Source of the DNA: Patescibacteria group bacterium UBA5272
GTDB lineage: Bacteria; Patescibacteriota; Minisyncoccia; Phycocordibacterales; UBA5272
Length of the DNA: 64,000 nucleotides
Direction: 5' to 3'
Assembly (NCBI GenBank): GCA_002408565.1
Contig: DHTA01000005.1
Coordinates: 108,049-172,048, forward strand
Made by a program: the position numbers and the translations under genes. Below the pieces are notes generated by a model, which had not been told where the DNA came from, did no database searches, and saw nothing but the letters and a program-made list of their open reading frames with translations. Position 1 is the stretch's first letter. Each line of letters begins with the position of its first letter. Below, one piece after another: positions 36,745 to 58,566 of this stretch.

Positions 36745-36972
36745 TTATTCATTATGACATGATGTGCAGTAATAGCACCCATCCACGTTGTCAGCAATCT
36801 CCTTAGAGAAATTTTCTTTTACATAATTGATTGCGGTATGACAAGAAGTAAAAATTCCTAAAAATTTTTGATTTTCTGATTTTGGTAGAAGAGAACAACT
36901 AGAATTATGTACTTCGTAATTTTCTCCACTTTTAGAATCTTGTTTGTTTAAATTTAAAATATATTTATTCAT
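36745..36972 (-). CDS. Small Cys/His-rich protein (75 aa), putative zinc-binding, Ada-like N-terminal motif
   Basis: YEVHNSSCSLLPKSENQKFLGIFTSCH ... DGCYYCTSCHNE gives C-x3.. and C-x2-C-x2-CH clusters. Convergent with the R-M genes. Confidence 0.4.
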   Translation of the reverse strand: MNKYILNLNKQDSKSGENYEVHNSSCSLLPKSENQKFLGIFTSCHTAINYVKENFSKEIADNVDGCYYCTSCHNE

Positions 36973-48423: not shown

Positions 48424-49509
48424 ATGAAAGATGAAAAAACGACCCAAAAAGACGAAAACGTCCGTCATTTAGCTTTATATAGAAAATATCGTCCTCAGGA
48501 ATTTAAAGAGGTCTTAGGGCAAGATTTGGCCATTCAGGTACTAGAAACTGCCATTGAGCAAGACAAAATCTACCACGCTTACATTTTTGCTGGAGATCGT
48601 GGTACTGGTAAAACCACTGTGGCCAGGATTTTTGCGAAAAATATTGGTTGTTCTCAAGATGACATTTTTGAACTAGATGCAGCCAGTAACAATAAAGTAG
48701 AAGATATTCGTCTCATTATTGATGCTACTCAAGCTTCAACTTTTGGCTCCAGATATAAAGTTTACATCTTAGACGAAGCTCACATGCTTTCTAGATCAGC
48801 TTTTAATGCACTCCTAAAAACTTTAGAAGAGCCACCAAGTCATGTGATTTTTATTTTGGCTACTACGGATAAATATAAAATTCCAGACACCATCATTTCT
48901 CGTTGTCAGGAAATCAATTTTGCTTCACCAGATATTAAAAGTTTAGAAAAACTAATTACTTCAGTTAGCAAAAAAGAAGGTATTGAAGTTGACTCTGGGG
49001 CTAAAAAGAAAATCGCTGAAGAAGGTCGTGGATCATTTAGGGACACTTTAAGCGTTTTAGAGAAAATTTTAAACACCTTAAATAAAAAAGAAATTTCTCT
49101 TGAAGATGTAAAAAAGATTTTTGGTACAGTGGAAGACGATGAAATCTTTAATGTCTTAGAAGCTATTACTGAAAAGAATGTTTACAAGCTTTTAACTTCT
49201 CTAAATAATTTAAAACTTGAAACCAGTCAAATAGTAGACAGAGTTTATGTGGAAATAGTAAAAATGTTTGAACTAGCTCTTTTTATGAGATATTTGACCC
49301 TAGAGGAAGCTAAAGAAATTTTTATGGGACAAGAAGGGGAAAAGCTTATCAGAAAAACCAAAGCTTTAGCCGAGAAACATCCAAAAGTTATTTCTTCTGG
49401 TAATTTGTATAGTTTGTTAGAAATAGAGAAAGAATTAAATCAGAATTCAAATCTTAAGAAGAGTATATTAAAAACTGGTTTGATTAGAATATTAGAGAAT
49501 GTAGAATAA
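48424..49509 (+). CDS. dnaX: DNA polymerase III subunit gamma/tau, short gamma-like form
   Basis: KYRPQEFKEVLGQD, Walker A FAGDRGTGKTT, DEAHML and SRC motif (ISRCQ). 361 aa. Confidence 0.8.
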   Translation: MKDEKTTQKDENVRHLALYRKYRPQEFKEVLGQDLAIQVLETAIEQDKIYHAYIFAGDRGTGKTTVARIFAKNIGCSQDDIFELDAASNNKVEDIRLIIDATQASTFGSRYKVYILDEAHMLSRSAFNALLKTLEEPPSHVIFILATTDKYKIPDTIISRCQEINFASPDIKSLEKLITSVSKKEGIEVDSGAKKKIAEEGRGSFRDTLSVLEKILNTLNKKEISLEDVKKIFGTVEDDEIFNVLEAITEKNVYKLLTSLNNLKLETSQIVDRVYVEIVKMFELALFMRYLTLEEAKEIFMGQEGEKLIRKTKALAEKHPKVISSGNLYSLLEIEKELNQNSNLKKSILKTGLIRILENVE

Positions 49510-49875
49510 CTAAATCTGAAGGCTAAATCAGGTTTAAGATAGATTAAGTCTTTATATTAATAAACAAAGCTTTTCTTGTTTTTTATATGTATAGTGTCGT
49601 AAAAGAGAGATTGTGCGACACTGTATAAATTAAAACATCCTAAACCCTTTTTCTTATTAAAGCACTTTTATCAAGATTCAAGATTTTTAATATAAACAAA
49701 ACACACGGTGTCGAACCGTGTGTTTTGCTAGTCACCCAGACTATTAATATTTTGTAGATTCAATTTCTTGAATCTGTAGGAGAGACAGAAATGTGGGATT
49801 TTTCTATCTCCCCTATTAAAAAGTATAGCAAGATATCAAAGAGCGAAAAGATTTACAAAATTAAAAAATATTGTA

Positions 49876-50115
49876 TTATTTTTTACCAAAAACTTCTAAT
49901 TCTATTCCTGTAGTAAACTTTACAATCGAAACCACACCTTTCCAAAAGCGTTCAAAGATTTCTGGCAAATTGACGCTTTTAAAAATATAGAAGAAATCAA
50001 ATTTTCCTTTCTCATGATTTCCTTTAGTCAAAGTAGCGCAGATAGCCGAATAGCCCAACAAGAAAGCTATAAAACAATAAATTATAAGTCTTAATAAATA
50101 TATTTCTACCACCAT
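49876..50115 (-). CDS. Hypothetical small hydrophobic protein (79 aa); uncertain
   Basis: The only sizeable ORF in a 750-bp gap. TM-like N-terminus. Its ATG overlaps the stop of an upstream 38-codon hydrophobic ORF (ATGGTGGTAG). Confidence 0.25.
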   Translation of the reverse strand: MVVEIYLLRLIIYCFIAFLLGYSAICATLTKGNHEKGKFDFFYIFKSVNLPEIFERFWKGVVSIVKFTTGIELEVFGKK

Positions 50116-50222
50116 ATAAAGAAATTTCTTTTAACAGTCAAAAAGAAACCTAGGACTATACCGAGGATGAATAGGAGAATAAATAAAAGTAATAAGTCGT
50201 TTAAAGCCATTCTGATTAACAT
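50106..50222 (-). CDS. Putative 38-aa hydrophobic mini-ORF (MLIRMALNDLLLLFILLFILGIVLGFFLTVKRNFFIWW); uncertain
   Basis: Hand-translated. It is translationally coupled by a 10-nt overlap to the 79-aa ORF. It may be spurious. Confidence 0.2.
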   Translation of the reverse strand: MLIRMALNDLLLLFILLFILGIVLGFFLTVKRNFFIWW

Positions 50223-50261
50223 GGTTTTATACTACAATATTCAAAAAAAGATTGCAATTCT

Positions 50262-51602
50262 TTAAAAATTTACTAAAGCTTTCAAAGCATTATCAATTCT
50301 AAGCAGAGATTCTTCCTTACCTAAAATATTTAATAAAGATTTTGGATCTGGAGATTTATCTTTGCCTGATAGAACGTAACGTAATGGCCAAAGTATGTCT
50401 CCTTTACCTTTTTCTTCGGCTAATTTGTATATTTCTTCCCAGCACTCTTCTATTTCTTTTGATTCAGCAAGAATGTTTTTAATTAGATTTAAATTGATTA
50501 CAGCATTATCTTTATCTGACTTTTTCCAAATTATCTCTGAAGGATTATTATAAACTGGAGCGTTAAGGTAAAAATCTAATTCTCCATCTTCTTTCATTTT
50601 TTTCAATTCTCCATAATAGCTAAGTCTGTCTACTAAAATCGGTCTTAATTTTTCTAACATAACAGAAGTATATTTTTCAGATTCTGGTAAATATTTTTTA
50701 AGATATTCTAATTGTTCTGCTTCAGATTGAAGTTTGATATATTCCTTATTAAACCAATTTAGTTTTTCAATATTAAAAACCGCTCCACCTTTTTGTACCC
50801 TTTCTATATCAAATTTTGAAATAAGCTCTTCCAAAGAATAAATCTCTCTTTCTCCGCCCGGATTCCAGCCTAAAAAAGCTAAGAAATTTATAAAAGCTTC
50901 TTTTAGGTAACCGTTGTTTTTATAATGTTCCACAGAAACTATTTCTCCGTGTTTTCTTTTAGAGAGTTTTTCTTTGGTTTCTGAAAGAATTAGTGGTATA
51001 TGAGCATAAGTAGCTCTCTCTCTTTCTCCAATAGCTTCCCAAATCAAAATTTGACGTGGAGTGTTAGCTAAATGTTCTTCCCCACGAATAATATGAGTTA
51101 CATTCATGAGAATATCATCTACAACATTGGAAAGATGAAAGACTGGTTCGTCTAAACTTTTAGCAATAACAAAGTCTCCAAGATCTGTAGTGTCTACTGA
51201 AACTTCTCCCCGAATAAGATCGGTGAAAGTGATAATTTTATTTGGATTTTTAAAACGAATCACTTCGTCTCTTTGACTTTCTTCCAAAACTTCTTCTTTA
51301 GAAAAATAAGCGTGACCGTTCTCAATTAATTTTTCTAAATATTTTCTATGAATAGGAAAATTGTCGGACTGCTTTTTTGTCTCATCAAATTTTAAATCTA
51401 ACCACTCAAAAGCTCTCAAAATACCTTCTGTAAATTCTTCTTTATTTCTTTCTAAATCAGTATCTTCTATTCTTAAAAGAATTTTACCTCCCTTTTGTTT
51501 AGTGTAAAGATAATTAAAAAGTGCAGATCTAGCTCCGCCAATATGAAGGAATCCTGTGGGACTAGGAGCAAAACGAGTTATTATATTATTGGTTTTTGAC
51601 AT
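50262..51602 (-). CDS. gltX: Glutamate--tRNA ligase (probably non-discriminating)
   Basis: RFAPSPTGFLHIGGARSALFNYL (HIGH region) and KLSKRK (KMSKS-type). Confidence 0.9.
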   Translation of the reverse strand: MSKTNNIITRFAPSPTGFLHIGGARSALFNYLYTKQKGGKILLRIEDTDLERNKEEFTEGILRAFEWLDLKFDETKKQSDNFPIHRKYLEKLIENGHAYFSKEEVLEESQRDEVIRFKNPNKIITFTDLIRGEVSVDTTDLGDFVIAKSLDEPVFHLSNVVDDILMNVTHIIRGEEHLANTPRQILIWEAIGERERATYAHIPLILSETKEKLSKRKHGEIVSVEHYKNNGYLKEAFINFLAFLGWNPGGEREIYSLEELISKFDIERVQKGGAVFNIEKLNWFNKEYIKLQSEAEQLEYLKKYLPESEKYTSVMLEKLRPILVDRLSYYGELKKMKEDGELDFYLNAPVYNNPSEIIWKKSDKDNAVINLNLIKNILAESKEIEECWEEIYKLAEEKGKGDILWPLRYVLSGKDKSPDPKSLLNILGKEESLLRIDNALKALVNF

Positions 51603-57512: not shown

Positions 57513-57536
57513 AATATTACATCAATTATATCACGC

Positions 57537-58553
57537 TTAAAAATCCAAGCCTGTTTCCTTTCTAACTTTTTTCAACATGAGACTTGCTTTTTTGTTAGCT
57601 CTTTTAGAGCCAGATTTTAAAACTGAAAGCATTTCTTTTTTTCCTTTAGGAGTATTCAAATAATAATTATATTTCTTTTTCATTTCAGAAAAATAAGAAA
57701 GAATGGTCTTTAAAAGTTCTTCTTTGGCCTCTTTATAGCCGTAAGGATTTTTATCGCTATTTAAAAATTTCTGTCTTAGCGCCTCATCTTCTTTTTTGTT
57801 TAAGAAGATCTTATGAATCTTATAAATTAAAACCTCATCTGGATTTTTCTTTTCATTTGGAGCTTTGCTGTCAGTTTTGATGTTCATAACTTTCTTTTTT
57901 ATTTCCTCATCTGAAGCAAACATTGCTATAGCATTGCCTTTACTTTTGCTCATTTTTTCTCCATCAATACCAGGAATAACTTCCAACTCTTTTACAGAAT
58001 AAGCTTTGGGAGATTTAAAAGTGTTTGTATTATAAGCTCTGTTATATTTGCCAGCAATTTCTCTAGTCATTTCCAAATGCTGTTCTTGATCTTTTCCAAC
58101 AGGAACAATATCTGCCCCATAAATCAAAATGTCTGCTGCCATTAAAACTGGATAATTTAAGAGACCAATATTCACATCTTTTTTCTCATTAGCTTTATCT
58201 CTTTCTTTGTCTTTAAATGCGTGAGCTAAAAATAGCATAGGAAGAGGTGTGACAGTATCCAATATCCAAGTCAATTCTGTAACCAAAGGCACATCGCTTT
58301 GTTTAAAAATGGCGACCTCCTTCTTATTAAAACCACAAGCTAAATACGCAGCAGCCGTTTCTAAGATTTTATTATTTCTTTCTTTTTTGTCTATCAAAGT
58401 TGTCATAGAATGATAATCTGCCAAAAAGATATAAGACTCGTAATTTCCAGAATTCACTAACTCCACCATTTGTTTGATGGCTCCAAAATAATTCCCAAGA
58501 TGAAGCTCTCCGCTAGTTTGCACTCCCGACAATAACACTTTTTGTTTTTTCAT
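57537..58553 (-). CDS. trpS: Tryptophan--tRNA ligase
   Basis: VLLSGVQTSGELHLGNYFGA (HIGH-type) and KMSKSKGN. Start trimmed to Met-30 of the track ORF (MKKQKVLLSGVQ). Confidence 0.9.
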   Translation of the reverse strand: MKKQKVLLSGVQTSGELHLGNYFGAIKQMVELVNSGNYESYIFLADYHSMTTLIDKKERNNKILETAAAYLACGFNKKEVAIFKQSDVPLVTELTWILDTVTPLPMLFLAHAFKDKERDKANEKKDVNIGLLNYPVLMAADILIYGADIVPVGKDQEQHLEMTREIAGKYNRAYNTNTFKSPKAYSVKELEVIPGIDGEKMSKSKGNAIAMFASDEEIKKKVMNIKTDSKAPNEKKNPDEVLIYKIHKIFLNKKEDEALRQKFLNSDKNPYGYKEAKEELLKTILSYFSEMKKKYNYYLNTPKGKKEMLSVLKSGSKRANKKASLMLKKVRKETGLDF

Positions 58554-58566
58554 AATTTTTACAATA

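Follow-up and report, generated by a model that had tools for sequence, protein, structure and literature searches.

The region between the genes dnaX and gltX of Patescibacteria group bacterium UBA5272, at positions 49,510 to 50,261 of a 64,000-nucleotide stretch of contig DHTA01000005.1 (this whole stretch being called "the window" here), is probably a compact, conserved junction situated where replication of a Patescibacteria chromosome probably terminates, and three independent functional units are found together there. These are a small-protein operon, orf1-orf2, whose mRNA is probably leaderless, a new small RNA family, and a divergent dif-type site, all of them of ordinary kinds and each of them lineage-specific. 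To our knowledge, hardly any of the Patescibacteria (candidate phyla radiation) have been cultured, and next to nothing has been described of how their chromosomes work or of their regulation by RNA.

The region sits between the stop codons of the converging dnaX (+ strand) and gltX (- strand), and the gene order dus-dnaX, then this region, then gltX-murG-ftsW on the opposite strand, is kept in relatives down to 63% DnaX identity. These syntenic loci were fetched with DnaX as the anchor: two close loci came from a DnaX-based scan of genomes, seven further lineages with the same convergent arrangement from DnaX homologues of 82% to 63% identity, and six additional loci from a pattern scan of metagenomes. 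The proportion of synonymous differences (pS) between the compared genomes is 0.47–0.86, that is, synonymous sites are near saturation, and therefore any invariant non-coding stretch must be under selection; the non-coding blocks of the region are better conserved than the flanking coding sequence. The first-pass annotation, made from the letters of the window, had described here four stem-loops and two overlapping minus-strand open reading frames (ORFs), and all of them are present, 1–4 nucleotides (nt) away from where they had been placed.

A predicted new small RNA family

Three of the four hairpins belong to a single predicted small RNA gene on the minus strand, with its own promoter and intrinsic terminator, composed of the following elements (lengths of helices in base pairs, bp):

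49694–49814, - strand: small RNA gene, about 121 nt, in the order H1, H2, H3, terminator, U-run
49778–49814, - strand: H1, 14-bp 5' hairpin with the invariant 9-nt loop AAUCCCACA
49756–49775, - strand: H2, variable hairpin, 8 bp with a GAAA loop in the window, folded sequence by sequence
49729–49743, - strand: H3, short hairpin UAGUC-UGGGU-GACUA
49696–49728, - strand: intrinsic terminator, 14-bp stem and then UUUUGUUU
49822–49858, - strand: small RNA promoter, with the extended -10 TTGCTATACT (49822–49831), a TTGnnn -35-like element and the upstream TTGTAAAT (49851–49858)

Fourteen distinct homologues of 96–131 nt share one common fold order, namely H1, an optional H2, H3 and the terminator, and all six loci of the metagenome pattern scan carry the promoter, H1, H3 and the terminator. 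Folding of 49510–49880 against dinucleotide shuffles gave z scores of -5.97 (+ strand) and -6.86 (- strand), with none of 100 shuffles as stable. In H1, 98% of the cells of the alignment are paired, four pairs change in a compensatory manner (11 cells), and none of 500 shuffles reaches the covariation score, while RNAalifold found 12 covarying pairs in H1 plus the terminator, eight of them in the terminator helix. The comparison across relatives thus brought out compensatory changes in the helices of the small RNA, where the first-pass annotation had suggested looking for covariation. The H1 loop and lower stem are invariant in sequence; pair 4-34 is an invariant G.U, and the wobble 9-29 is U.G in 12 of the 14 sequences and C-G in the other two. 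These G.U pairs would be mismatches on the + strand. This also bears on the pair GGAGAGA...TCTCCCC (49778–49814), which had been called the weaker one and is actually the strongest helix. Its 14–15 bp form on the minus strand, since two of the pairs, which are G.U in that orientation, would be C.A if the + strand folded.

The remaining elements vary more. H2 has sequences unrelated between lineages, yet it always forms a hairpin where present, being missing in 5/14 homologues; in the window it corresponds to the hairpin AGATTCAA-TTTC-TTGAATCT, which does exist as first described, with its coordinates corrected from 49752–49771 to 49756–49775. The H3 loop has UGGGU in 10/14 sequences. The stem ACACACGG-TGTCGAA-CCGTGTGT at 49701–49723, with TTTTG after it on the + strand and TTTTGTTTAT after it on the - strand, lies within the terminator, whose palindromic symmetry is such that transcription reading through from dnaX on the + strand could end there as well. 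The terminator loop carries the motif (G/C)CUCA(A/U) in 13 of the 14 sequences, the window being the exception with UUCGACA (49708–49716); a conserved sequence in a terminator loop is unusual.

In the promoter, the extended -10, (C)TTGnTATAaT, stands 6–8 nt before the first base or G-run of H1, together with an upstream TTGTAAA, in 14/14 lineages; in the window the extended -10 lies 7 nt upstream of AGGGG. A consensus promoter scan misses this promoter because its -35 is poor.

A covariance model of the family (R1) scores 117.8 bits on the - strand of the window and 27–28 bits on the + strand, and finds a single copy there. The same model found no small RNA in loci whose DnaX is at most 51% identical, nor in the Saccharibacteria (TM7) or viral contigs considered below; a 20.5-bit match in one of these (L072) was set aside, given that it overlaps an ORF of the prophage region. 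Rfam 15 gave no match at gathering score in the window, with noise only at E<=10 on 49300–50400 and noise only at E<=5 on four divergent homologous loci, and ARAGORN found no tmRNA (transfer-messenger RNA) in the region. The Rfam scan that had been proposed as a check thus came out empty, and the earlier remark that RNase P, tmRNA and signal recognition particle (SRP) RNA are not recognisable here was borne out by both programs, neither of which found any known family. So the first-pass suggestion of an unannotated structured RNA stands for three of the four hairpins, as one minus-strand small RNA with promoter, covariation and terminator, and falls for 6S or any other Rfam family. Judged on its sequence, the small RNA is a new family, absent from Rfam, with its own promoter and intrinsic terminator.

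The small RNA was also seen, only a few bases off the window, in two metagenome contigs, L049 (ENA UOOK01000496, a fermentation metagenome) and L051 (Ga0208195_1000027), in a comparison which spans the small RNA plus about 70 nt upstream and 50 nt downstream; such few differences point to the same organism or a close strain in those samples.

The alternative that deserves most attention here, although we consider it unlikely, is that the block 49694–49814 is no more than the folded 3' untranslated region of the orf1-orf2 mRNA, terminator included, and serves to stabilise the transcript. The block is on the strand of the operon, no terminator was found between the orf2 stop (49876) and the block, and the order orf1-orf2-RNA is the same in every lineage. 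Nevertheless, a near-consensus extended -10 (TGnTATAAT) precedes H1 by 6–8 nt in 14/14 lineages, and the H1 loop and lower stem stay invariant despite saturated synonymous sites, which goes beyond what a stabilising 3' hairpin would need. We suggest keeping in mind that a 3' untranslated region and an independent small RNA are not exclusive of each other.

As an independent small RNA, transcription from the extended -10 promoter would give an RNA of about 121 nt that begins directly with the very stable H1, and this RNA would act in trans, with the apical loop AAUCCCACA and the invariant lower H1 stem with its fixed G.U as the putative contact surface. The invariant lower stem and the fixed G.U would fit recognition by a protein or a structured partner, and such a protein or structured RNA is a more likely partner than a Shine-Dalgarno region, because the genome has almost none. 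The C-rich loop had at first pointed to Shine-Dalgarno targets, as in the staphylococcal and Firmicute RNAs RNAIII and RsaE/RoxS. The C-rich (UCCC) hairpin loops of those RNAs pair with Shine-Dalgarno regions. The small RNA shares with them a stable multi-hairpin architecture, an own promoter, an intrinsic terminator and a conserved C-rich apical loop (AAUCCCACA), besides the CUCA terminator loop, but it differs in having no sequence or Rfam relationship with them and in belonging to a genome nearly without Shine-Dalgarno sequences.

Three further candidates were rejected. The small RNA as a Shine-Dalgarno mimic or an anti-Shine-Dalgarno RNA was discarded with GGAG or GAGG upstream of only 1/65 genes; a loop-loop kissing between H1 (CCCA) and H3 (UGGG) is weakened in 4/14 lineages with no compensation in H1; and a 40-codon ORF on the + strand (49791–49913), with GGAGAG ahead of its start in the H1 loop, is not a gene, as only 9 codons of it are left in one relative (L001).

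A divergent dif-type site

The remaining stem-loop of the first-pass annotation, the inverted repeat AGTGTCG-N16-CGACACT at 49593–49622, of which this is the sole exact copy in the window, is better read as a dif-type DNA recombination site than as an RNA structure:

49594–49621, no strand assigned: dif-type 28-bp site, + strand GTGTCGTAAAA-GAGAGA-TTGTGCGACAC, - strand GTGTCGCACAA-TCTCTC-TTTTACGACAC
49566–49573, no strand assigned: palindrome AAAGCTTT, semi-conserved, on the dnaX side of the site; TAAAGCTTTA in most relatives

The site has an 11-6-11 layout, with imperfect inverted arms that are symmetric at 9/11 positions in the window (7–9/11 across 15 sequences) and TATA-rich flanks. Across 15 distinct sequences the core TCGCACAAT-N4-CTTTTACGA never changes, the four bases in the middle of the spacer being the sole ones to vary, so that the consensus read as DNA is GTGTCGCACAA / TnnnnC / TTTTACGACAC. 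The window and each syntenic locus have a single copy, half-sites are no more frequent than expected by chance, and the site lies sixty to about a hundred bases beyond the dnaX stop codon. In three lineages (L040, L042 and L047), a separate dnaX terminator hairpin was recognised by eye upstream of the site in the aligned sequences, which leaves the site between convergent terminators with nothing to regulate.

The position of the site agrees with a replication terminus. The cumulative GC skew of the window reaches its maximum at 49.5–50 kb, and the coding-strand skew at third codon positions (GC3 skew) is +0.091 for the + genes on the left, -0.107 for the - genes on the left and +0.077 for the - genes on the right (p about 0.016–0.019), a pattern from which it follows that the direction of replication flips between 43.3 and 50.2 kb. 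The region is thus at a probable replication terminus. We infer an Xer-type enzyme and chromosome dimer resolution as the host function: the two 11-bp arms would bind a tyrosine recombinase of the Xer kind, and strand exchange across the 6-bp spacer would resolve chromosome dimers.

Sites of the dif type are defined by two 11-bp arms around a 6-bp spacer (PMC5357621, PMC2958812), as in the dif of E. coli, GGTGCGCATAATGTATATTATGTTAAAT, and that of B. subtilis, ACTTCCTAGAATATATATTATGTAAACT (PMC3025954). The window site resembles the XerCD/dif system in being a non-coding stretch of 28 bp with two partly symmetric 11-bp arms and a 6-bp centre at a shift of GC skew, and it keeps the arm/spacer boundary AA, N6, TT. 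The likeness is mainly on the XerC side, where left arm plus spacer read GTGTCGCACAA-TATATC against GGTGCGCATAA-TGTATA, whereas on the right side TTTTACGACAC does not resemble the XerD arm of canonical sites, TTATGTTAAAT, the symmetry lies in the outer and not the inner arm positions, and a profile of canonical sites does not recover the window site. Over both orientations, identity is 13–17/28 to E. coli dif and 10–17/28 to B. subtilis dif, or 14–17 when the better orientation of each sequence is taken, as compared with 9.1 +/- 2.1 matches of random 28-mers to E. coli dif. Like the sites of the single-recombinase systems, namely XerA/dif of archaea (PMC2958812) and XerH/difH and XerS/difSL (PMC5357621), the window site has arms more symmetric than those of XerCD dif; it differs from the XerS and XerH cases in that no recombinase gene adjoins it and its sequence is unrelated to difSL or difH. 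The archaeal dif was discovered in silico as 11-bp imperfect inverted repeats with a 6-bp spacer, intergenic and conserved among relatives, with AT-rich flanks, a terminus location and about 14/28 positions common to bacterial dif (PMC2958812), and the window site answers to this same description.

A few observations concern the surroundings of the site. The palindrome TAAAGCTTTA lies 8–20 nt from it and is not found beside the Saccharibacteria sites described below; it might be an accessory binding site. In one lineage, an extra 69-aa (amino acid) ORF with its own terminator (L045:6247–6456, - strand) stands between the small RNA and the site, which stays near dnaX, so the small RNA and the dif-type site are separable. 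In another lineage only (L053), a perfect DnaA-box nonamer (TGTGGATAA) is found between the small RNA terminator and the site, probably by chance. Two other readings of the repeat were rejected: a short peptide SHNxSFTT running through it has no start codon in L046 or L047, and a site for sigma-70, sigma-54, NrdR, LexA, CIRCE, parS, matS or the DnaA box does not fit by eye, with nothing downstream to regulate.

Filamentous prophages at the site in Saccharibacteria

The 18-base core was also found in 22 IMG/VR contigs of 30–47% GC with unrelated flanks, and all 22 extend the match by the same flanking G and C, which had not been part of the search. Six of these contigs (L061, L066, L068, L070, L072 and L075) carry direct repeats 5.3–5.9 kb apart, one repeat being a full site and the other a hybrid. 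In the hybrid, the left arm is retained together with most or all of the spacer, the right arm is another one, and the identity between full and hybrid copies ends at or within the last three spacer bases. These junctions in relatives point, indirectly, to strand exchange at the central region of the site.

The clearest order is that of L066, in which a host murG fragment and an FtsQ-like gene are followed by the full site, eight phage-like ORFs, the hybrid site (GTCGCACAATATATC, then unrelated sequence) and a host DUF3048 gene. The ORFs between the two sites include a Zot-like ATPase and a rolling-circle Rep, and the host genes are those of oral Saccharibacteria (TM7), the DUF3048 gene product being 100% identical to a TM7 protein. 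In L061, similar genes lie between its two sites, with the Zot match being to a related PHROG family, and L059 and L064, unrelated to each other in nucleotide sequence, both have this phage gene pair next to a single copy of the site. Altogether, at least four nucleotide-unrelated contig groups have Zot-like and Rep genes beside the site, and no integrase was detected among the prophage proteins scanned. As an observation in its own right, integrase-less inovirus-like prophages with genes for a Zot-like ATPase and a rolling-circle Rep are present in L059, L061, L064 and L066–L075, six of them bounded by a full and a hybrid site.

Known elements that exploit Xer recombination, such as CTXphi, VGJphi, TLCphi and the gonococcal genetic island (PMC5357621), are a close parallel, since the integrase-less filamentous prophages of TM7 are likewise bounded by a full and a hybrid site, and the TM7 hybrid, just as difGGI (PMC5357621), keeps one arm and all or most of the centre with the other arm divergent. 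The differences are that the hosts here are Patescibacteria and that the window itself is without such an element. By analogy, a full and a hybrid site around integrase-less prophages would be the signature of elements exploiting the host Xer, and these filamentous phages of Saccharibacteria would use the core as their attachment site via the host Xer. The host MurG of L066 is only 30% identical to the MurG of the window, and the conservation of the site across such distant Patescibacteria argues for a host function. The window has one intact site with no hybrid or half-site nearby, and a 31-mer query of annotated phage and plasmid collections gave no significant match. A remnant origin of orf1 and orf2 from an inovirus was rejected, given that neither has similarity to any ORF of the 22 viral contigs and no hybrid site is nearby. 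Literature searches on Xer, dif, Patescibacteria and Saccharibacteria turned up no paper that connects Xer or dif with Patescibacteria, and a published study of TM7 prophages makes no mention of Xer.

It could also be argued that the 28-bp site is a conserved phage attB for an unrecognised phage-encoded recombinase, with no role in dimer resolution, considering that several prophage ORFs have no match in PHROGs or Pfam and that the site fails the canonical dif profile. We regard this as distinctly improbable: the site is invariant in lineages without a prophage, the window included, where no half-site is nearby; it is conserved between hosts whose MurG is only 30% identical, implying a host function; its 11-6-11 layout stands where the skew reverses; and inoviruses of at least four groups unrelated in nucleotide sequence make use of it, in the manner of known elements that exploit Xer (PMC5357621).

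The idea that the repeat at 49593–49622 is an RNA stem-loop, either an element of the dnaX 3' untranslated region or a small RNA, is very doubtful. The repeat can indeed form a stem of 7–12 bp, and one stem position shows a double change from G-C to U-A in two sequences. Against this, only 85.6% of cells are paired, two positions are mismatched without compensation in 7/15 sequences, the 16-nt "loop" is invariant except for the four central bases, and the strand evidence is conflicting, with G.U pairs falling on either strand depending on the lineage. Moreover, dnaX has a terminator hairpin upstream in three lineages, and the core occurs at prophage-host junctions with a hybrid copy that lacks one arm. 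The dif-type DNA site is therefore the reading we keep.

The small-protein operon

The third unit is made up of the two minus-strand ORFs and their promoter:

50229–50257, - strand: orf1-orf2 promoter, TTGCAA-17 nt-TAGTAT
50106–50222, - strand: orf1, 38-aa single-pass membrane peptide (34–40 aa in 13 lineages)
49876–50115, - strand: orf2, 79 aa with one N-terminal transmembrane helix (74–107 aa in 13 lineages)

Both ORFs are intact in all 13 lineages, each with one hydrophobic helix and conserved motifs, which in the orf2 tail read FDFFYxFK...W...TGIxLE, and the pair is single-copy and syntenic wherever it is found. The proportion of nonsynonymous differences (pN) of orf1 is 0.14–0.34 against a pS of 0.66–0.86, and the ratio of nonsynonymous to synonymous rates (dN/dS) of orf2 is 0.22–0.36; for the two small ORFs taken together, pN is 0.14–0.34 against a pS of 0.47–0.86, and dN/dS is about 0.1–0.36 where computable. 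These sequence comparisons show that orf1 and orf2 are coding genes under purifying selection. Neither has a match to a Pfam or NCBIfam family, and an exhaustive profile search of 1.84 billion cluster representatives returned 16 small relatives only. A separate comparison placed the orf2 homologues in only four 90%-identity clusters, all with the same gene order. The frames overlap by 10 nt in the window (ATGGTGGTAG), and across lineages there is either this 10-nt overlap or a gap of a few bases; this overlapping or abutting of the orf1 stop with the orf2 start suggests translational coupling.

The promoter has counterparts in relatives, TTGACA-17-TAGTAT in L047 and TTGTAA/TTGCAA-17-TATTAT in L045 and L046. 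Its -10 ends 6 nt before the ATG of orf1 in the window (6–7 nt in 8/11 lineages), and no Shine-Dalgarno sequence lies upstream of the orf1 start. Because the -10 ends so near to the ATG, the mRNA is predicted to be leaderless, and this sigma-70-type promoter abutting the start codon would give a leaderless two-gene mRNA for the 38-aa and 79-aa single-pass membrane proteins. Shine-Dalgarno sequences are nearly absent in the whole window, with GGAG in 0/65 and GAGG in 1/65 upstream regions (-20..-4), and many window genes were seen to have a TATAAT-like box 6–12 nt before the ATG; taken together, mRNAs of this genome seem as a rule to have no leader or a very short one.

The first-pass annotation had offered a locus of small membrane peptides resembling type I toxins. 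The small membrane peptides turned out to be real genes in 13 lineages (dN/dS about 0.1–0.36), while the toxin part found no support. In its full form, this proposal makes orf1, and perhaps orf2, a membrane-damaging toxin with the small RNA as its antisense antitoxin, and it is very improbable. In its favour, orf1 resembles Hok, TisB, Fst and BsrG in having about 38 aa and a single transmembrane helix, its length of 34–40 aa, hydrophobic single helix and basic tail are those of many type I toxins, and the small RNA gene adjoins orf1-orf2. But orf1 has no antisense RNA: the small RNA is co-directional and does not overlap the ORFs, and in 14 lineages the best duplexes between the RNA and the operon mRNA are no stronger than those formed by shuffled sequences (z -1.6 to +0.6), a pairing no better than chance that removes the antitoxin idea. 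Type I loci are typically patchy and multi-copy. The present genes are, on the contrary, conserved, with one syntenic copy each and purifying selection acting on them in relatives as far off as 63% DnaX identity, orf2 is always co-encoded with orf1, and the orf1 mRNA is predicted to be leaderless.

Relations among the three units

Several points weigh against our reading of the region as a terminus junction with three functional units and should be considered together. The terminus was placed from 64 kb alone, no tyrosine recombinase was found among the 39 window proteins scanned, and the site ranks 1460th in the window, at -4.2 bits, when scored with a profile made from the canonical XerCD dif of three species (E. 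coli, B. subtilis and F. alni); the same scan found no canonical dif anywhere in the window. The single-copy status of the site covers the DNA examined and not whole genomes, the 22 viral contigs were selected by the search pattern itself, and the prophage junctions come from Saccharibacteria and not from the lineage of the window. For the small RNA, no target or partner was found, it pairs with the operon mRNA just as well as chance would give, and orf2 and the small RNA have no terminator between them, so that part of the RNA pool could be the 3' end of the operon.

The small RNA, the operon and the site are linked in every lineage of the clade of the window, and the Saccharibacteria site also adjoins murG-ftsQ. 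It is conceivable, but very unlikely, that all three make up one functional module at the end of a cell-wall and division gene cluster. Equally unlikely is the form in which this module would be an RNA-protein device coupling terminus processing or division to translation, with H1 bound by an essential lineage-specific protein. The support for a functional link among the three units is limited to synteny.

As for decayed remnant DNA (a pseudogene or a dead mobile element), which had also been put forward at first and which an AT-rich region, ORF-poor at first sight, might suggest, it is refuted almost beyond doubt, with non-coding blocks that are more conserved than the flanking coding sequence and invariant across lineages of saturated synonymous divergence, with both ORFs intact everywhere, and with no similarity of orf1 or orf2 to any ORF of the inovirus contigs.

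Neighbouring genes and other gaps of the window

The window is AT-rich, with 31% GC, and the boundaries of the region are as follows:

48424–49509, + strand: dnaX, DNA polymerase III gamma/tau, 361 aa, with Pfam DNA_pol3_delta2 and AAA; left boundary
50262–51602, - strand: gltX, glutamyl-tRNA synthetase, 446 aa, with Pfam tRNA-synt_1c; right boundary

The window DnaX is 93% identical to the DnaX of a 'Candidatus Elulimicrobiales' metagenome-assembled genome (MAG), and the closest relatives of the window are uncultured Patescibacteria MAGs. The gltX gene is the last large gene downstream of the mraY-ftsW-murG block.

The claim that this is the largest intergenic gap of the window was essentially right, given that 49510–49875 (366 bp) is still the longest non-coding stretch when the small ORFs are counted as genes. 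The other apparent gaps of a greedy ORF map are filled by ORFs of 75–164 aa or a tRNA, and the apparent gap 57513–58566 contains a complete 335-aa trpS-like ORF. This tryptophanyl-tRNA synthetase-like ORF (57546–58553, - strand, 335 aa, with HLGN/KMSKS-type motifs judged by eye) is concealed in longest-ORF maps because an upstream in-frame start extends into the neighbouring gene. In an otherwise empty gap of 538 bp, a 75-aa ORF with two CxxC-like pairs was also observed (36745–36972, - strand).

Significance for the biology of Patescibacteria

A 28-bp site of the form GTCGCACAA-N6-TTTTACGAC is common to Saccharibacteria and to the clade of the window, which are distant lineages. It would serve as a simple marker of the replication terminus in MAGs, useful for the orientation and checking of assemblies and for estimates of replication from coverage, and it is a concrete substrate for asking which recombinase resolves dimers in reduced genomes. 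Its use would also explain how integrase-less filamentous prophages enter the genomes of oral TM7. In the case of the small RNA, we know of no regulatory RNA characterised in Patescibacteria, and a conserved one with promoter, terminator and covariation would offer a clean experimental entry point, in the few relatives that can be cultivated, into RNA regulation where Shine-Dalgarno pairing is unavailable as a target.

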